Below, piece after piece: positions 24,090 to 37,259 of a DNA stretch of 50,004 nt; the stretch's first letter is position 1, and each line of letters opens with the position of its first letter. Source of the DNA: a virus (taxonomy: Duplodnaviria; Caudoviricetes); IMG/VR virus record IMGVR_UViG_3300036857_000138, positions 1-50,004 of that record; one strand, written 5' to 3'. The position numbers were made by a program, and so were the translations under genes. The notes under the pieces were generated by a model that saw nothing but the letters and a program-made list of their open reading frames with translations, was not told where the DNA came from and made no database searches.

Positions 24090-25855
24090 TGCCTCGCGTC
24101 CGCGTCGTCTTGGATAGCGATCACCGTCTCGGTCAGGACCCGGCCGTCGAGGTTCAACTGCACCGGCTGCCTGATCTCACGGCGCGGCCGCCGGAACTGT
24201 TCACCGCCGAAGACGACCCGCTTCGACTCGCGGTTGGGGATCACGTCGGTTCCTCGGGGTAGGGAAACAAGCTCGGGTCCGGCCTCGCCGACGACCGCCA
24301 GGCCACCGGGAAAGCTCCGAATACCGTGTTGCCCGCCGGGGATCAGGCTGCCCGCGAACCCCGCCACGTCGCCCGCCGCGCCGAGGACCTTGCCGACGAC
24401 GCCGCCGGTGAGCTTGTCCTTGACTTCGTTGATCTTGTCGATGACCGCCTTCACCTTTTCCCATGCCCAGATGAACGGCGCGGCGATTTTCTTACCGACT
24501 CCGGCGAGCGCCCCGGCGATCTTGCCCGGCAGGCCCTTGAAGAACCCGACGACGGCGTTGAAGGCCCCGACGATCGCATCCTTCATTGCGAAGACGACGC
24601 CCTTGATCCGGCCGACGTTGGCCTTGATCACTTTGTAGATCGTGATCCAGACGACGAGGATCGGCGAGATCGGGATGATCAAGACCTGCCAGTTCTTCTT
24701 GACGAACGAGAAGATCGCATCGACCCCGTTGCGGAACCACTTGATCTTTTTGTAGGCGATGAAGAACGCGACCCCGAGGGCGATCACCGCGAGCATGATC
24801 AGGGTCACCGGTGAGGCCGCGATCGCCAGCGCCGTAGTCGCCACGGTGAGCGCGGTCGTCGCCACCGTCCAAGCGACGTAGGCCGCGACGACGGCCTCGA
24901 TCACTTCGGGGTGTTTGACGAGCCAGACGACGACGTTCTTGATCGCCTCGGCGAGCGGCTTGAGGGCCTGAAACACGTCGTGAATCGGGCCTTTGCCTTT
25001 GCGCCATTCCCTGATCCAGCGGCCGACGATATTGATCCCTTTCAGCAGCCAGGGCACGACCTTTTCCGAGAAGACGATCTGGAACCCGATCATCGCCAGT
25101 TCCATTCGGCGCTGGGCGGTGACGAAGTCGCCCATGTTTTTCGCCCCGGTCGCGGTCAGGACGGCACCGAACGATTTGGCTTCGGCGATGTTTTCGTGCA
25201 GCGCTTGCCGCCCTTCGCGGAAGAGCGGGAAGACCTGCGCGTAGCCTTTGCCGAACAGTTTTGACGCGAGGGCCTGCCGGGTCGTGCCTTTGGCGGTGTT
25301 CTCGAACCCTTCGGATATGTCGCCGAGCAACTGCCCGAAGTGATGCGACCCGACTTCGACCTCTTTCTGACTGATCCCGAGCTTGCGGAACGCACCCTCG
25401 GCAGTCGTCGATCCGGTCGCCGCCGCTTTCGCTTGTTTGGCGATCGTGTTCATCGCCATCCCGAACTTCGTCGCGTCGGCCCCGCGCACTTTCGCCAGCG
25501 AGAGCAGCGCCGATCCCTGTTCGACCCCGAGGCCGAGGTTTTCCCGCAGGCCGATCGTCGCCTTCGCCAGGTCGGCGGTGTTCGAGATCGCGTGTTTGCC
25601 CCAGATGCCGACCGCGATCGCACCCCCGGCGAGGCCGACTGCCGCGACTTTGGCGATCCGTTTGATCCCCGACCAGGCCCCCCGGAGTTTCGACGTGATC
25701 CCGGCCATCCGGCCGCCCGCCGCCCGCGACGCGGCGCTCGCCTCGACGCTGGCGGTGCCGACCCCTTTGATCTCGGTCGAGACGAGTTTCGCTTCGGCGG
25801 CCGCCTCTTTCCCGCCGGATAGCCGGATGCGGATCGAGACGATCTCGTCAGCCAC
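24086..25855 (-). CDS. Tape measure protein
   Basis: Ala/Gly-rich helical protein with aromatic repeats and VVGEAGPELV; follows the tail chaperones. Confidence 0.9.
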   Translation of the reverse strand: MADEIVSIRIRLSGGKEAAAEAKLVSTEIKGVGTASVEASAASRAAGGRMAGITSKLRGAWSGIKRIAKVAAVGLAGGAIAVGIWGKHAISNTADLAKATIGLRENLGLGVEQGSALLSLAKVRGADATKFGMAMNTIAKQAKAAATGSTTAEGAFRKLGISQKEVEVGSHHFGQLLGDISEGFENTAKGTTRQALASKLFGKGYAQVFPLFREGRQALHENIAEAKSFGAVLTATGAKNMGDFVTAQRRMELAMIGFQIVFSEKVVPWLLKGINIVGRWIREWRKGKGPIHDVFQALKPLAEAIKNVVVWLVKHPEVIEAVVAAYVAWTVATTALTVATTALAIAASPVTLIMLAVIALGVAFFIAYKKIKWFRNGVDAIFSFVKKNWQVLIIPISPILVVWITIYKVIKANVGRIKGVVFAMKDAIVGAFNAVVGFFKGLPGKIAGALAGVGKKIAAPFIWAWEKVKAVIDKINEVKDKLTGGVVGKVLGAAGDVAGFAGSLIPGGQHGIRSFPGGLAVVGEAGPELVSLPRGTDVIPNRESKRVVFGGEQFRRPRREIRQPVQLNLDGRVLTETVIAIQDDADARQ

Positions 25856-25864
25856 GAGGCCCCC

Positions 25865-26083
25865 TTATTTGATCCGGCTCGCTACCTCGTTGGCGATGTA
25901 GATCGCCAGCCGCCGCAGTCGGTCGTCGGTGATCTCGTCGATCTCGGCCGCCAGCGCGAGCATGATCCCGACCTCGTCCGGCCAGCGGGTGTCGAGGAAC
26001 GCCGGGCCGAGTCCGGCCAGGGCAAGGACGGCGAGCGGCCGTAGCTGCCCGTCCTCGCGCAGGGCGGCTAGGTAGGAGGGACC
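25865..26083 (-). CDS. Tail assembly chaperone GT extension (-1 frame)
   Basis: Open -1 frame overlapping the chaperone end (GTC CCT CCT ACC TAG) and ending just before the tape measure gene. Confidence 0.6.
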   Translation of the reverse strand, partial: GPSYLAALREDGQLRPLAVLALAGLGPAFLDTRWPDEVGIMLALAAEIDEITDDRLRRLAIYIANEVASRIK

Positions 26084-26667
26084 GCACCCTCTTCCTCGTC
26101 GTCGGACGCGATGGCCTCTTTCAGCCAGCCGTCGAGGGTGACGAAGTGATCGTTGAGCGCCGCCGGGTTCTTGAAGACGAGACGGCATATCGACTGGGCG
26201 GTGCCGGGGATCGGGTCGAGGCCGACCGCCTGCGCCAGCCGGTCGTCGTAGCGGACCGGCTCACCGCCGCGCCAGGCCGGATTCGTCTCGGCCATCGGCA
26301 TAAGCTCGGACGAGTCGCTCGGGCGGTAGAGGATCGTCTCGCAACATTGCACGATCGTCGCCGCCGCGAACTGCAACTCGGCCTCTTCGTTGCCGCCCCG
26401 GCGGAACGCCCGCTCGGCCCGCTTGCGGTAGTCGGCCCACGGCCCCGGCTTGTAGCGGGCGGCGAGGTTGCCCGAGAACCGGCCGGGGGCGATGGCGATC
26501 GTGATCCGGCGTTCCTCGGTCGCCTCTTGGTAGGCCTCGCGTAGCTCGTCGAAGACCGACGCTGGCTCGACCGGTGACTCGTCGGTCGGGTGTTCAAGCG
26601 TCGGGTCCTCGGGGACCTCTTCGAGCGTCGGGTCCTCGTGCAGGTCTGCCCCCGTATCCGGGTTCAT
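26068..26667 (-). CDS. Tail assembly chaperone G
   Basis: Lies between tube and tape measure; strong SD. Confidence 0.75.
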   Translation of the reverse strand: MNPDTGADLHEDPTLEEVPEDPTLEHPTDESPVEPASVFDELREAYQEATEERRITIAIAPGRFSGNLAARYKPGPWADYRKRAERAFRRGGNEEAELQFAAATIVQCCETILYRPSDSSELMPMAETNPAWRGGEPVRYDDRLAQAVGLDPIPGTAQSICRLVFKNPAALNDHFVTLDGWLKEAIASDDEEEGAVPPT

Positions 26668-26705
26668 AGTGACTCCCTTCCGTTCGTGATCGAGGCCGAG
26701 CGTGC

Positions 26706-27128
26706 CTACGTGATCGGCTCGTCGGCCGAGACTTCGAGCGCGACCATCTTCTTATCCGAAGAGTTCGAGTCGTGATCGGGATGGACGAAGCCGGTCAGCG
26801 TGCCGGTGAAAGTGAGCGGATCGCCGGTCGGCGACCGATCGGTTTTCAGCATCACGCGCTTCGCGGTCACGGTTCCGATCCCGACCATGCGGTCGAGTTT
26901 CTTCGCGTAGGGGTGATCTCGCTCTAGCTTGTAGAGGCGTTGCAGGGTGAAGTCGTCGCGGGACACCGGGCCGCCGAGCGATTCCTCGGGACCCATCCCG
27001 CCGGGGCGGTGCTTCGTTGACTCGGCTTTCGCCGCGCCGCCCTCGAACATGTCGAAGACGCCGAGCGCCAGCGTTTCGCCGTTCCCTTCGATCGTGACGG
27101 TGACTCTCTCTTGATCGGTGCGGCTCAT
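26706..27128 (-). CDS. Tail tube protein
   Basis: 140 aa, after the sheath; RPGGMG...LGG...TLQR...FTGTL. Confidence 0.8.
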   Translation of the reverse strand: MSRTDQERVTVTIEGNGETLALGVFDMFEGGAAKAESTKHRPGGMGPEESLGGPVSRDDFTLQRLYKLERDHPYAKKLDRMVGIGTVTAKRVMLKTDRSPTGDPLTFTGTLTGFVHPDHDSNSSDKKMVALEVSADEPIT

Positions 27129-28570
27129 TGCGCGATCGCTTCCGTTGTCGGGACCTTGACGATTTCGACGGTGAGGACTTCGCCGGTGCGCGAAGTTCGG
27201 ATGGCGATCTGGGCCTTGATTTCTTCGCGGGCGATGCTTTCCGGCGTGTTCACGTCAGGGCCGGTATTGACGTTGAAGGCTTCGTCGGGGGTCTGGCCGT
27301 AGAGGGCGTTCGCCATGTAGAACGGCAGGCAGGCCCGGCCCGAGAGGTCGGCTTCGAGGTCCTTGAAGATGTAGCCGTGGCCGTCGATCTGGGCGAAGTC
27401 GTAGTCCTCCATCACGAGGTCGGCGGCGGCCGCGACGGCCATCACGACCCGGCTCGCGGCGAAGCTCGCCCAGTCGCCATCGGTCGTCGGGTTGACGAGG
27501 GTCCGGTTGCCGTAGGTCATCGGTATCCCGCGCTTGAGGATCGCCACGGTGACGCCGGAGTTGTTGAGCGTTTCGCGTTCGGCGTCGGTGTACTGGACCG
27601 AGAGGTTGGTCGCGTAGCGACAGGCCCCGCGCTTACCGGCGGCGGCCTCGCCCGGCGAGTGCCCTTCGCCCTCCGAGCGAGCGATCAGGCCCATCTGGAT
27701 CGCCGACCAGGGGACCGTCCGGGTCGTGCCTTTGGTCAGCCCCGGTATCACCGCGTGAGCCGCCAGGAGAGCGCCGTAGCGGGCACCGGTGACGGATCGG
27801 AGGGCAACCCCTCGCGTCGTCAATTCGCCGCTCGCATCGGACGCGAGATCGAGCAGCGCCCGACGATTGTTTTCGTTGCAATGGGCGAGGATCGCTTTGT
27901 GCATCGCTTCGGTCTGGAACCCCGGCGCGGCGATCTGGCCGGGGCCGAGATCGCGGGTGAAGAGTTTGAGCGCGGCTTCGACCTGCGCTTGTTCGACTTT
28001 CGAGTTTTTGTCTTCGCCGCCGGTCAGTTCGACGGTCTGCGCTTTCGGGATCGCTTCCCCGGCTTCGCCGACTTCGGCGTTGACGTACTGCGAGGTCTGA
28101 TTCGCCCAGTTGACGATCTGTTCGATCGTCGTCAGTTCGGCAACCGACTCGACGACGACGCCGCTCAGTTCGACGATGATCGTCGCTTTGCCGCCCGCGA
28201 CTTCGACTTTGACTTTGAGTTTGTTGCCCCATTCACCGGCCGACTCGGCTTTCAATTTGACGACTTTTTTGCCGCCGGTGTCGGCGAGTTCGGCGGCCGC
28301 CTGTTTCGCCCCTTCCCCGATCGCCCGGCCGATGTAGATGCGCGAGGCCCCCTCGCGGAAGGCCGCATCGACGCAGTCGTAGAGCAGCGGGAACCCGGTC
28401 ACGCGCCCCCCGTACCGGGCCACGAAATCGGCCAGCGAGACGACCGCGAGCGCTTTGTTGGTCGGGCCTCGTTCGCTGACCCCGACTAGAAACCCGTTGG
28501 CGGTCGAGCCAGCCGAAGTCGGGGCGGCGGCTCGTTCGCCGATTAGTACGGTGTGGCCCGGCAGCGGCAT
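27125..28570 (-). CDS. Tail sheath protein
   Basis: LPG..., G.SERGP, AGEWGN.LKV, LTGG.D, YGNRTL, VNTPESI. Confidence 0.92.
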   Translation of the reverse strand: MPLPGHTVLIGERAAAPTSAGSTANGFLVGVSERGPTNKALAVVSLADFVARYGGRVTGFPLLYDCVDAAFREGASRIYIGRAIGEGAKQAAAELADTGGKKVVKLKAESAGEWGNKLKVKVEVAGGKATIIVELSGVVVESVAELTTIEQIVNWANQTSQYVNAEVGEAGEAIPKAQTVELTGGEDKNSKVEQAQVEAALKLFTRDLGPGQIAAPGFQTEAMHKAILAHCNENNRRALLDLASDASGELTTRGVALRSVTGARYGALLAAHAVIPGLTKGTTRTVPWSAIQMGLIARSEGEGHSPGEAAAGKRGACRYATNLSVQYTDAERETLNNSGVTVAILKRGIPMTYGNRTLVNPTTDGDWASFAASRVVMAVAAAADLVMEDYDFAQIDGHGYIFKDLEADLSGRACLPFYMANALYGQTPDEAFNVNTGPDVNTPESIAREEIKAQIAIRTSRTGEVLTVEIVKVPTTEAIAQ

Positions 28571-33761: not shown

Positions 33762-33943
33762 TACAACGGGGCGGTCGTCGAGCCGTCGCGCTCGGTCCGC
33801 TCGAAAGCGACGAAGAGGCTCGCGTCCATCGGCGAATACCCGTACTGCTCGATCAGCTTTTGGGTGAACAGTTGAACGTCGATCGGGTCTTTCAAGGCCC
33901 GCGCTTCCTCGGCCAGTTTTTCGATCTCGGCGGTTTCCATCAC
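33761..33943 (-). CDS. Small hypothetical protein coupled to MuF-zincin
   Basis: GTGA overlap with the MuF stop. Confidence 0.6.
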   Translation of the reverse strand: MMETAEIEKLAEEARALKDPIDVQLFTQKLIEQYGYSPMDASLFVAFERTERDGSTTAPL

Positions 33944-35802
33944 TCGCCTTTCCAGATGCCATTCGCCTTCAAGAGCGCGACCATTTTCTCACGGATCGGT
34001 GCCCATTCCTCGTCGGTCCAGTTGTACATGCCGGGTTTGTGATTGCGGTGTACGGCGCGGACCCGTTCGAGGCCTAGCTCGCGGGCGATGAAATGCTCGA
34101 AGACGCGGGCGAACTGCTCGGAGCCTTCGAGCAGGTAGTTGCGGTAGCCCTGCGACCAGACCGCCGACCAGCCCTCATTGATCACCTTCGGCTGGGAGAG
34201 GAACCGGATCGGGGCCGAGTTGCCGACCTCGGCCATCAGGTCGGCCAACTCCGGCGAGGCCTGCGCGATCTTCGCCGGGTCACTCCACTCGGTCAGGAAG
34301 ACCTCGCCCGAGGGCCGGATCGTCGGGTGCTTGAGGGCGAGCAGATTGTCGAGCCGGTGGCCTAGCTCGTGACTGGTCGCCGTCCGCCAGTAGGCCGCGT
34401 CGGCGAGCGCTTCGTTCGCCGCCACGTCGTAGTAGAGGCGGGCGGCTCGCGTCTCGTTGCCAGCCCCGAGCGCGGCGACCGCCCCTTTTGCCTGACCGAG
34501 CGGCGGCGCATCCTCAAGCGCGACGACGCCCTCGTCGGCGGGGAAGGCGAGCAGCTTGTCCATATCCTCTAGGGCCTGTTCGGCCCCCGGCTTCGCGTAT
34601 TTGAGGCCGAACTCGCCGTGTATCCGATCGCTCGGGCGGATCGAGCGGGTCATTTCCTCCCAGCGCCGGACGTGACCGGCGACGGCGTCTTTCGCCACTT
34701 CGGCGGCGCTCGCGGTCGGCCCGGCCGGGACTGGCGGCTCGGGGATCGGGACCGGCGGTTGCGCCGGTGGCGGTGCCCCCGCCCGGCCGTACACGGCGAC
34801 GAGGGTGCCCCGGCACCGCAGGCCGCCTTCGCATTCGACGTAGCCCCCGGTCGGATAGTCCTCTTCGGCTTCGGCCAGGGTGTCGTATTCGGTTCCGTCA
34901 ATATCCGCGCAGGGGCCGCAGGTGTTTTCGTCCATGACCTCGCTCGCGTAGATCGCCATCCTCACCGCCCCGCCGGGGTCGGCGCGGGCGATGATCGGCT
35001 CGACCGGCGGTTCTTCCTGCGCCCGCATGAACGCCTTACGCCCGGCGTTGTAGGCCTGCATCGTCGCCCCCCCGAGTTGCAGTTCAAGCTCGGCGTCGGA
35101 GAGTTCGAGCAGGTAGGAACGGACGGCCTGACCGGCGGCGGTCGCTTCGAGGGTCGAGACGGCGGCGGCTTTTTTTGCGGCGGCGGTCGAGAGGCCGTTC
35201 GCCAGGTTGACGACGACGGCCCCGGCCCGCTCGTTGGCCTGTTCGTTGACGGCGCTCGGATCGACCTGCACCGGCTCGATATCGCCGATCTGCGATACGA
35301 ACTCCGACCGGGCCGAGGTCGCACCGGCGGCGGCCGCGTCCTGTAGGTGCCCGGCGACGAGCAGCGGTTCGACCGGCTGGACCGTGATCCGGGCCAGGTT
35401 GACGGCGTTCCCGGCGGCGGCTTCGGTGGCCTCGACCGCTTCCTCGATCTGGTCGAGTTGAGCGCGTTTGTAGTCGGCCAGCAGCGACGCCCGCTGGCGC
35501 TGATAGACCTGCTCCATGTCGGCGAAGTCAGCCCCCGAGGCGACCTCGTGATCGAGTAGCTCACGCCGGAGTTCGCGGTTCGGCAGTTGATGCCCGGCGG
35601 TCAGGGCGAGGGTGCCGTCAGGGTGCCGATGCAGGACCCCGGCGTCGAGCAGTTCGTCCCGAGCGCGGCGTGCAGTCCCGTTTTTCGGGTCGGTGCCAAT
35701 GGCGCGTGCCAACTGCGGCCAGGTCCGCCGCTGGCCCGCCGCCTCGGTTATCCGCGCCGCGACCTCCCGGCGGACTGAGCCGTCGCGGCTTGCACTTTTG
35801 GG
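33940..35802 (-). CDS. wHTH-MuF minor head protein with C-terminal zincin; probably translated as a -1 frameshift extension of portal
   Basis: MDENTCGPCADIDG...CEGGLRCRGTLV (MuF); HELGHRLD...EQFARVFE (zincin); frame open back to 35913 and the first start is a TTG at 35712 inside the HTH. Confidence 0.8.
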   Translation of the reverse strand, partial: PKSASRDGSVRREVAARITEAAGQRRTWPQLARAIGTDPKNGTARRARDELLDAGVLHRHPDGTLALTAGHQLPNRELRRELLDHEVASGADFADMEQVYQRQRASLLADYKRAQLDQIEEAVEATEAAAGNAVNLARITVQPVEPLLVAGHLQDAAAAGATSARSEFVSQIGDIEPVQVDPSAVNEQANERAGAVVVNLANGLSTAAAKKAAAVSTLEATAAGQAVRSYLLELSDAELELQLGGATMQAYNAGRKAFMRAQEEPPVEPIIARADPGGAVRMAIYASEVMDENTCGPCADIDGTEYDTLAEAEEDYPTGGYVECEGGLRCRGTLVAVYGRAGAPPPAQPPVPIPEPPVPAGPTASAAEVAKDAVAGHVRRWEEMTRSIRPSDRIHGEFGLKYAKPGAEQALEDMDKLLAFPADEGVVALEDAPPLGQAKGAVAALGAGNETRAARLYYDVAANEALADAAYWRTATSHELGHRLDNLLALKHPTIRPSGEVFLTEWSDPAKIAQASPELADLMAEVGNSAPIRFLSQPKVINEGWSAVWSQGYRNYLLEGSEQFARVFEHFIARELGLERVRAVHRNHKPGMYNWTDEEWAPIREKMVALLKANGIWKGE

Positions 35803-37259
35803 GGTGCGGTCGGCGGCGATCGTTCGTGTTCGCGGACCGGCACCCCTTCGGCGTTGGGATCGAGCGGCGGCGGCACCGCTGCTTCGCCTTCGCCTTCCGG
35901 GGCAGGTTCACCTTCGGCACTATCACCGCCCGGTTCACCGGAGGGCGGGGCAGGCGTTTCGTCCTCCGGCTCGGGCGGCCTCGGCACGCCGAACCGGTCG
36001 GCGAGCAGGACTCGAAGCTCGGGGGTCGCCGCGATCAGCCCCGATTCGACGGCGGTTTTGAGATCGGCGATCGAGAGGGCGGCGTCCTCGACGCGGGTGT
36101 AGGTCAGCCGGGGCGGCGTCTCGTCCGGCCCCCAGTTGAGTTCGACTTCGTCTTCGATCTGGTAGGCCTGCGTCGTCGCCGCGTACCAGTCTGCGATCGC
36201 CGTCTGGGCCTGCGAGTACCAGTCGATGAACTCCGAGCCGAGTGCCCGCGACCCCGTCTCGGTCGTGCCGAGGTTGAAGAACAAGAGCAGGAACGCCTTG
36301 CTCATCTGCTCGTCGTGATAGCGGACCGAGCCGATCGTGTCGGGCAGGATGCCTTCGACCCCGGCGATTCTGAGACGGCCCTGACCGGCCCCGCCGACGT
36401 ATTCCCCGGCCCTGATTTCGGCGGCGATTTTCGCTAGCTCTTGGACCTGTTTGTCGTTGCCGTCTTCGACCTCGAACCAGGGGATACCCATGCTGTTTCG
36501 CTCGTGCTTGGTCGCGTCGAGCCGCAGTAGCCGGTCCTTGATCGCCCAGTTCGGATGACAGGATCGGAGCATCGACCGGCCGACCCAGTCGGCGTCGTCC
36601 TCGGGTTCCCAGATGTAGCCGAGCAGCCGCTCGATCCCCAGCGTCCGGCCGGTCAGCGTCTCGACCCCGAGCGCCGAGCCGTTGCCGTTGCTCGACGGGG
36701 CACCGAGGACCTGCTGCTGGATCGCCCGGAGCGCCCCGTTGTCTTCGAGGACGAAGTTCGAGATCGTCCGGGGCGGGCGGGTGCCGAGCTTTTTCAGGTG
36801 GACGAGGCCGTCGTCGCCGATCTCGTACACCTGCTCGAAGTAGTAGTGGCCGTAGCCGAGGGCCTGTAGCGCGTGGGCCAGGTGGCGGTCGTGATTGAAC
36901 CGGCCCCGCTGGCGGATCGTCGTCTGGTCTTCGCCCCGGATCGGCAGGTTGAGCGAGGCCGCGACGTGTTTCGTGACCGAGGCTTTGGCCCCGTTCGGGT
37001 CGAGTTCCCAGCGGTAGCGGCGGATCGGCAACGTCGTCGCCAGCAGCAGCCCTTTGACCTGCGCGTCGGCCTGCATCCGGCGGTAGGTGTCCGACGATTT
37101 CGGCCAGGTGAGATCGGGGGCCGTCTCGCGCTCGTCGATGAACGTTGACCACGGCAGGACCGAGCCGAGGCCCGCGATCGGCGTGCCAATGTCCGCCGGT
37201 GCGCCGACCTCGCGGGTCGGGGCCTGCTCGCCGCTCGGTGCTTTGGCGGTGTCGGCCAT
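35748..37259 (-). CDS. Portal protein (Mu gp29/DUF935-like)
   Basis: YRRMQ.DAQV, ALGYG...FEQVY, GRSMLR, ERNSMGIP, GSRALG. Confidence 0.9.
   Translation of the reverse strand: MADTAKAPSGEQAPTREVGAPADIGTPIAGLGSVLPWSTFIDERETAPDLTWPKSSDTYRRMQADAQVKGLLLATTLPIRRYRWELDPNGAKASVTKHVAASLNLPIRGEDQTTIRQRGRFNHDRHLAHALQALGYGHYYFEQVYEIGDDGLVHLKKLGTRPPRTISNFVLEDNGALRAIQQQVLGAPSSNGNGSALGVETLTGRTLGIERLLGYIWEPEDDADWVGRSMLRSCHPNWAIKDRLLRLDATKHERNSMGIPWFEVEDGNDKQVQELAKIAAEIRAGEYVGGAGQGRLRIAGVEGILPDTIGSVRYHDEQMSKAFLLLFFNLGTTETGSRALGSEFIDWYSQAQTAIADWYAATTQAYQIEDEVELNWGPDETPPRLTYTRVEDAALSIADLKTAVESGLIAATPELRVLLADRFGVPRPPEPEDETPAPPSGEPGGDSAEGEPAPEGEGEAAVPPPLDPNAEGVPVREHERSPPTAPPKVQAATAQSAGRSRRG
35756..35802 (-). other. 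Programmed -1 frameshift signal
   Basis: C CCA AAA (35802-35796) in the portal frame; 6-nt spacer; 8-bp stem GCCGCGAC/GTCGCGGC. Confidence 0.7.

Follow-up and report, generated by a model that had tools for sequence, protein, structure and literature searches.

Programmed frameshifts are textbook for the tail assembly chaperones of tailed phages and are known for some of their capsid proteins. Here, a candidate -1 frameshift site is described at the end of a portal gene, in a 50,004-nt stretch of DNA from a soil phage of the Caudoviricetes (67.5% G+C; IMG/VR virus record IMGVR_UViG_3300036857_000138; the whole stretch is referred to as the window). The portal gene is followed, one base out of register, by an open reading frame (ORF) coding for a winged helix-turn-helix (wHTH), a MuF-like core and a C-terminal domain with an HExxH motif, and a -1 shift of the ribosome would append these three parts to the portal protein.

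The closest described arrangements are genes in which portal and MuF are fused outright. That such hard fusions exist, as the initial annotation stated, is borne out in print, in the available parts of PMC7302621 for the Microbacterium clusters EA3, EA5, EA8 and EB, and in those of PMC5512222 for portal/MuF-effector fusions among the 'polyvalent proteins'. As described there, the actinobacteriophage and polyvalent fusions share with the window a Mu-type portal, a linker, a MuF domain and, in some cases, a C-terminal effector-like domain, but the window's parts lie one base out of frame and would be joined only if the ribosome slips, so that a short and a long product, and not one, are expected here. 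The -1 frameshift in the G/GT genes of the tail assembly chaperones (Xu, Hendrix and Duda 2004, as cited in the available parts of PMC7302621, PMC7911831, PMC3556154 and PMC5506516) also relies on an X XXY YYZ heptamer shortly before a structural gene ends, and slippage there adds a C-terminal extension from the -1 frame to the major protein, yielding a minor product; both are expressed at a fixed ratio from a single mRNA. It differs in gene pair and role, while the extension in the window is 618 aa long, comprises three domains and is hard-fused in relatives.

According to the available parts of PMC5576092, muf likewise comes immediately after the portal gene in the MuF polymorphic toxins and SPP1 gp7, its product pairs a MuF module at the N-terminus with a C-terminal domain that varies, and 20% of the putative MuF toxins carry a metallopeptidase domain. 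The window protein, by contrast, lacks a Pfam MuF match and has an N-terminal winged helix, and its attachment to the portal would be covalent, by way of translation. A heptamer followed by a stem-loop or pseudoknot is also found in the -1 frameshift signals of IS3-family transposases and dnaX in bacterial systems (PMC4066793, available parts), although the pseudoknot is only a candidate in the window, and the motifs of those systems are of the A AAA AAG type, whereas C CCA AAA in the window ends in A_AAA, the weakest of the six effective tetramers in E. coli in that study. The initial annotation knew of no described portal frameshift of this type, and none linking portal and MuF was found in the open-access full text available; the 300,000 characters available of a large recoding review (PMC5009743) contain neither 'portal' nor 'MuF'. 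The arrangement thus combines two known themes, frameshifting in phage structural genes and portal-MuF fusion, at a portal site that is itself apparently new, as far as the available parts of these sources extend.

The candidate frameshift signal and the portal-MuF junction

The locus is best explained by a programmed -1 frameshift that yields a portal-wHTH-MuF-HExxH fusion in addition to the plain portal, a reading that, judging from sequence comparison and structural models, is probably correct. This reading, proposed in the initial annotation, is supported by fused relatives, by the collinearity of the window with one of them (P0150), by a frame offset shared by six assemblies and by the position of the first possible start codon of the -1 frame, a TTG, which would cut the wHTH. 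Most ribosomes would read frame 0 to the TAA at 35750, giving rise to a 503-aa Mu-type portal, and on C CCA AAA a minority would move back by one base, the tRNA-Pro going from CCA to CCC and the tRNA-Lys from AAA to AAA. The slipped ribosomes would produce a protein of 1106 aa, made up of portal residues 1-488, a short linker, the winged helix, the MuF-like protein and the HExxH (LPD1-like) domain. Since the two ORFs are offset by one base where a slippery sequence lies and the close relatives are fused, some ribosomes probably slip here; slippage at this site, its frequency and the presence of few cargo-bearing subunits in each portal dodecamer are what we infer.

The portal gene, the -1 ORF and the signal elements all lie on the minus strand. 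The heptamer C CCA AAA (35802-35796; mRNA CCC CCA AAA) was recovered in the portal frame as first described, 15 codons ahead of the portal stop; it encodes Pro487-Lys488, and Lys488 is followed by 15 sense codons. A 6-nt spacer (35795-35790), with variable sites at 35794 and 35791, separates it from a hairpin (35756..35789). The hairpin was likewise reproduced: its 8-bp perfect arms, GCCGCGAC (35789-35782) and GTCGCGGC (35763-35756), are exact reverse complements and enclose an 18-nt loop with an inner 3-bp helix. For the 51 nt that follow the heptamer, it is the structure of lowest free energy (-22.2 kcal/mol). The 45 nt past the spacer fold at -22.5 kcal/mol, a stability reached by 2.5% of segments on the same strand, on which perfect 8-bp stems with loops of 3-25 nt occur 59 times in the 50,004 nt.

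In-frame X XXY YYZ motifs occur eight times in 45 ORFs (11,452 codons), and three times where Y is A or T, so that approximately 0.01 would be expected in the zone of about 52 codons in which a -1 shift joins the two ORFs. The heptamer furthermore requires CCA, which accounts for only 13 of the 668 proline codons. Codon usage across the window is uneven for a phage of 67% G+C, AAA making up 47% of the lysine codons (217/458) and CCA 1.9% of the proline codons. An in-frame A AAA AAA is also found inside the MuF-like ORF (35176-35170, ...AAKKAA...), where a -1 shift would lead to a stop after 28 codons. When a tail-chaperone heptamer was sought as a positive control at 25800-27300, a single GGGAAAG (25813) was found, out of phase with the presumed chaperone ORF.

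The -1 frame ORF (33940..35907; stop 33942-33940) opens at 35907, behind a stop at 35910-35908, and not at 35913 as given in the initial annotation. Starting at AGT 35796, it extends portal residues 1-488 by 618 aa, and the length of 1106 aa originally calculated for the fusion is correct.

The offset between the two frames recurs in other assemblies. An IMG/VR contig (L001) differs from the window at 97 of about 3320 sites (2.9%) and is identical at the junction and the heptamer. Most of its differences fall at third codon positions of the frame in question, namely 13 of 18 in the portal-only part and 45 of 68 in the downstream part, read in the -1 frame, which argues that neither ORF is decaying or a pseudogene. 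Logan contigs from four runs of four other soil studies were also compared at the junction, which all four bridge. The X7 contig (35450-35871) does so without gaps, X8 (35566-36150) with only a 3-nt in-frame gap near 35880, X10 (35627-35835) with a 12-nt deletion that ends exactly at 35803 and leaves the heptamer in place, and X11 covers 35660-35804. Among the differences listed for these contigs (31 further ones are not shown), the heptamer (35796-35802) is unchanged in all four and no indel occurs at 35738-35802. Six assemblies, comprising the window, L001 and the contigs of the four runs, therefore keep the -1 offset without any net shift of frame. For these assemblies this excludes a one-off sequencing indel as the cause of an interrupted continuous ORF, the possibility raised in the initial annotation.

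The pattern of substitution differs on the two sides of the heptamer. Upstream of it, the changes at 35844 and 35856 are at third positions of frame 0, while downstream, the changes at 35794 and 35791 in X7, X10 and X11 replace V by A and Q by P in the portal protein and leave the -1 translation as it is. A more divergent portal, P0060 (87% identity), encoded together with P0003 on one 6147-nt contig, ends in ...PPKAPAATGRSAGRSRRG as against ...PPKVQAATAQSAGRSRRG in the window, with the 'PPK' and the tail length kept. As deduced from the proteins, with two confirmed in DNA, all four replacements in P0060 would require a second-position change in frame 0 that is a silent third-position change in frame -1. 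In the sequences compared, constraint thus changes from frame 0 to frame -1 at the heptamer, ahead of any start codon of the -1 frame. The most variable part of the locus is the acidic, proline-rich portal linker upstream of the heptamer (35860-35900): it differs from L001 at 11 sites distributed among all codon positions, and it also contains a 3-nt indel and, in the contig of one run, a 12-nt deletion.

Fused and split relatives and the domains of the predicted product

With the -1 ORF translated from the heptamer onwards (620 aa) as query, a homologue search returned 57 proteins. In 45 of them a Mu-type portal domain is part of the polypeptide as well, so that portal, winged helix and MuF are joined in frame; these fusion proteins are 613-841 aa long and end in ...GGLRCRGTLVAVY. 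Correspondingly, 107 of the best 120 portal relatives are 666-835 aa in length. Comparison of 67 loci gave 33 fused in frame, 20 split and 14 without one of the two matches. All loci with a portal identity of at least 36% are fused, with the sole exception of the window's own relative (L001/L003). Two of the 20 split loci represent one IMG/VR contig closely related to the window, and in the other 18 the portals are only 31-35% identical; 16 of these 18 are considered ordinary adjacent genes because the portal stop has a start codon no more than about 70 nt away. The initial annotation had asked whether homologous loci would keep the heptamer and its offset or have a gene fused in frame instead. 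Both are found and favour its reading, the variants keeping the offset and the close relatives being fused.

The most informative relative is P0150, a single ORF of 1115 aa with a portal (69% identity), a linker, a wHTH-MuF part (65%) and a C-terminal HExxH domain, in the same order as in the predicted 1106-aa product. Its alignment follows frame 0 of the window up to nt 35802 (EHTRQPPTVP against EHERSPPTAP) and, starting at nt 35772, frame -1 (RSDLALALTEAA... against RREVAARITEAA...), and this collinearity places the frame switch within 35802-35772, the site of the heptamer. The -1 reading of the window, PKSASRDG..., also matches the in-frame PKASEG... and PPKAAEG... of fused loci. Two of these (L084 and L086) have CCC AAA G, coding for Pro-Lys, 31 codons before a conserved Leu/Ala in helix 2 of the wHTH, and the window has CCC AAA A 30 codons before the same residue, in the same phase relative to the wHTH frame. 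This phase match suggests an ancestral fused gene that later underwent a 1-nt change in the C run. The lineage would thus probably derive from a fused gene by such a change before the ancestral CCC AAA (Pro-Lys), with slippage at the resulting C CCA AAA restoring the fused product.

Scans of viral contigs with P0061, P0006, P0005 and P0150 yielded known or fused loci only, or nothing; a metagenome scan gave two loci, both fused, and a genome scan nine distant loci. Among the INPHARED phages a close relative is absent, the best being Arthrobacter and Gordonia phages, and in Gordonia phage Matteo the portal and MuF are ordinary adjacent genes. The unfused portals P0061 (65% identity) and P0063 end in ...RWGLPPPPK, and the tail of P0061 after ...LPPPPK is arginine-rich (..GRRSRRG..) and resembles helix 1 of the window read out of frame; the called start of P0005 (46% identity) is a Met within the wHTH wing. 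By their sequences, P0061, P0063 and P0005 may represent further lineages with a frameshifted portal-MuF junction, in which case such a junction may have evolved repeatedly. Longer fused single ORFs are present in L048 (1510-6832, 1774 aa, to the locus end), L025 (1229-4358, 1043 aa) and L016 (1453-4357, 968 aa), with C-terminal extensions that are unlike that of the window and look like the 'polyvalent protein' pattern.

The wHTH (35602..35787) was modelled with AlphaFold2 from an alignment of 55 sequences, with a mean predicted local distance difference test (pLDDT) score of 92.3 and blocks of 81-98 after the first 10 residues. Counted from CCC 35802, the model has helices at residues 6-21, 28-34 and 42-53 and strands at 57-59 and 64-67, that is, three helices (35787-35740, 35721-35701 and 35679-35644) and a beta-hairpin wing (35634-35602), as in winged helix-turn-helix domains. 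Helix 1 overlaps the last codons of the portal and lies upstream of any start codon of the -1 frame. The TTG at 35712-35710, residue 31, falls inside helix 2 of the predicted model, leaving helix 1 and half of helix 2 upstream of it; the initial annotation had placed it within an apparent winged helix. The domain is conserved in both fused and stand-alone relatives, and in the stand-alone proteins P0006 (883 aa) and P0154 (315 aa) an ATG is located just ahead of helix 1. A Foldseek search with this model found no match at E <=0.001; the weak matches were to GntR, FadR and IclR regulators, the best with an E of 0.012.

The MuF-like core (34783..35589) ends in ...CEGGLRCRGTLVAVY, matches PHROG 595 (E 1.8e-9) and has 1060 relatives in the representative library. 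By tblastn it shows 57-73% identity over approximately 56-68 residues to Arthrobacter phage genes annotated by name as 'MuF-like minor capsid protein'. Pfam Phage_Mu_F (PF04233) was not matched: the window protein lacks any Pfam family at E <=0.1, and two of seven aligned members give an E of 0.96. The MuF label of the initial annotation is thus upheld by the position directly downstream of the portal gene, by PHROG 595 and by the likeness to MuF-annotated genes, but not by the Pfam model, and the protein is best called MuF-like on these sequence grounds.

The C-terminal helical domain (33943..34782) contains the motif HELGHRLD, with HELGH at 34371-34357, and the H, E, G, H, R and D of HExGHRxD are invariant in 4/4 and 7/7 aligned sequences. 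The domain has an AlphaFold pLDDT of 69.7, and Foldseek found no match in the PDB at E <=0.001. It scores 0.96 in the Atlas to LPD1 clusters, with 25 of 30 matches falling in LPD1-bearing clusters, though only 11-14% of the members of the top clusters carry LPD1. Pfam LPD1 (PF18796) is matched weakly by four of seven aligned members (best E 1.7e-4) and not by the window protein. In the available parts of PMC5512222, LPD1 is counted among 40 domains with 'elusive' functions, outside the list of potentially enzymatic ones. The designation 'metallopeptidase' in the initial annotation finds the invariant HExxH motif in its favour, but neither a Pfam nor a fold match, while the Atlas score and the weak Pfam matches in relatives point to LPD1; the designation is a guess from the motif. 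In P0006, about 260 additional residues separate the MuF core from the HExxH domain, and a weak RelA_SpoT match (E 0.0052) occurs in one alignment member, assumed to be P0006.

Alternative explanations and points against recoding

Two ordinary genes would also account for the arrangement, if a 1-nt change had split a fused gene and MuF were now to start at TTG 35712, or weakly at an ATA (35751) behind GGGAGG, without helix 1 and without slippage; this is unlikely, though it retains appreciable weight. The TTG is the first ATG, GTG or TTG of the -1 frame: no ATG or GTG precedes it, as originally noted, and no earlier TTG does so either. It is a rare codon, making up 5.5% of the leucine codons, and six fused relatives have CTN or GCT in its place (CTA, CTG, CTC twice and GCT twice). 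The earlier statement that it lacks a Shine-Dalgarno (SD) sequence did not hold up: its predicted duplex with the anti-SD sequence (-5.0 kcal/mol) is close to the median of 44 rough gene starts of the phage (-5.6 kcal/mol), and that of the portal's own start is weaker (-2.5 kcal/mol), so that the argument from a missing SD fails. Gene callers also start P0002, P0003 and P0004 at the TTG position in helix 2, portal and MuF are separate and adjacent in more distant phages, and stand-alone MuF proteins without a wHTH exist (P0157 and P0167). A start at the TTG would, however, fall within a helix of a confidently predicted wHTH, and the relatives with a true start begin ahead of helix 1. In the 90 nt from the heptamer to the TTG there are no differences from L001, where about 2.6 would be expected at 2.9% divergence, and in other variants it is only in the -1 frame that the changes are silent. 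Two separate genes would, moreover, leave unexplained why a heptamer built on a rare codon is kept at the very point at which the match to single-ORF relatives passes from one frame to the other.

Slippage of RNA polymerase on the C5A4 run, which would add or omit a base so that a share of the mRNAs would encode the fusion in one frame, is improbable to a high degree. The junction does consist of a C5 run followed by A4, and the outcome, two products from one locus, would be indistinguishable from that of ribosomal slippage in genome comparisons. Productive transcriptional slippage in bacteria, however, usually needs longer A or T runs, and a polymerase has no need of an X XXY YYZ motif in the right phase with a spacer and stem. 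An error of assembly or sequencing, or a mixed population, in which the true genomes are fused in frame and a homopolymer base was miscounted, appears scarcely credible. A short homopolymer pair is present at the site and the in-frame fusion is the closest arrangement seen among relatives, but the same offset recurs in the window, in the 2.9%-diverged IMG/VR contig and in the Logan contigs of four runs from four studies, with no indel among the differences listed there at 35738-35802, and P0060 and P0003 are called separately from a further contig.

Several observations weigh against programmed frameshifting itself. The hairpin is present, yet unexceptional for the local composition: compared with dinucleotide shuffles, the 73-nt fold has a z of -0.38 (64 of 200 shuffles as stable) and the 51-nt fold a z of -0.69 (37 of 200). 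The pseudoknot suggested in the initial annotation is regarded as unsupported; a 5-bp pairing between the loop and downstream sequence would, by a rough estimate, be expected by chance at such a G+C content. In E. coli, A_AA.A is the weakest of six effective tetramers and C_CCA slips at just 1.8-3.6 times background (PMC4066793, available parts), so that the efficiency of slippage may be low. The two silent changes common to three runs may represent one event, 31 differences in the contigs of the four runs are not shown, and the conservation of the heptamer at the nucleotide level covers variants up to about 8% diverged only, P0003/P0060, P0004 and P0005 being more diverged members of the split type. 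A separate start at the TTG is plausible, since a rare leucine codon replaces CTN/GCT and its SD is average, and a free form of 590 aa may be made from it alongside the fusion or in its place. Finally, P0150 shows that a fusion in all subunits is viable, and a need to limit the dose is thus conjectural.

Two further candidate starts were considered. GGGAGG (35768-35763), a strong SD-like hexamer in the hairpin loop, lies 11 nt before ATA 35751-35749, which is in the -1 frame and overlaps the portal TAA. Its anti-SD duplex of -11.5 kcal/mol is the second-strongest among the sites scored and beats 43 of the 44 gene starts; together with the ATA it might serve as a weak internal start or make ribosomes pause, or it may have arisen by chance. 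A start at ATC 35820 is considered unlikely because its SD is weak (-2.9) and the region ahead of the heptamer varies, with a 12-nt deletion and non-silent changes.

Genomic context and implications

In a rough map of the whole window based on G+C content at third codon positions (GC3), the long high-GC3 ORFs are almost all on the minus strand. The portal gene forms part of a head module that comprises the large terminase (39743-38355), two small ORFs, the portal gene in frame 0 (37259..35748; 503 aa, stop TAA 35750-35748), the ORF downstream of it (ending at 33940), two further small ORFs, the head maturation protease (33460-31628), the scaffold (31631-31179) and the major head protein (31177-30236). 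The portal is of the Mu type, with a match to Pfam Portal_Mu (PF06074) over residues 57-410 at 117.5 bits against a cut-off of 23.9 (E 1.1e-33), and it also matches the PHROG 113 portal (E 1e-49).

Returning to programmed frameshifting as the preferred reading, we lean towards the view that the -1 shift at the portal end turns a hard fusion into two products, such that, at the DNA exit channel, few of the twelve subunits carry a covalently tethered wHTH-MuF-HExxH part. Recoding could then plausibly keep the dose of cargo subunits low; the initial annotation envisaged it as setting the dose of effector delivered by the virion. If the frameshift is real, annotation pipelines are likely to mis-start such genes, given that the called starts of P0002-P0004 fall in helix 2 and that of P0005 in the wing. 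The site would then also provide a short, testable recoding signal for high-G+C hosts, and it would suggest a simple route from a frameshift mutation in a fused gene to a regulated recoding site. With sister phages encoding all-fused, frameshifted and separate versions of the same proteins, this family would constitute a natural experiment on the number of cargo-bearing subunits that a portal ring tolerates.

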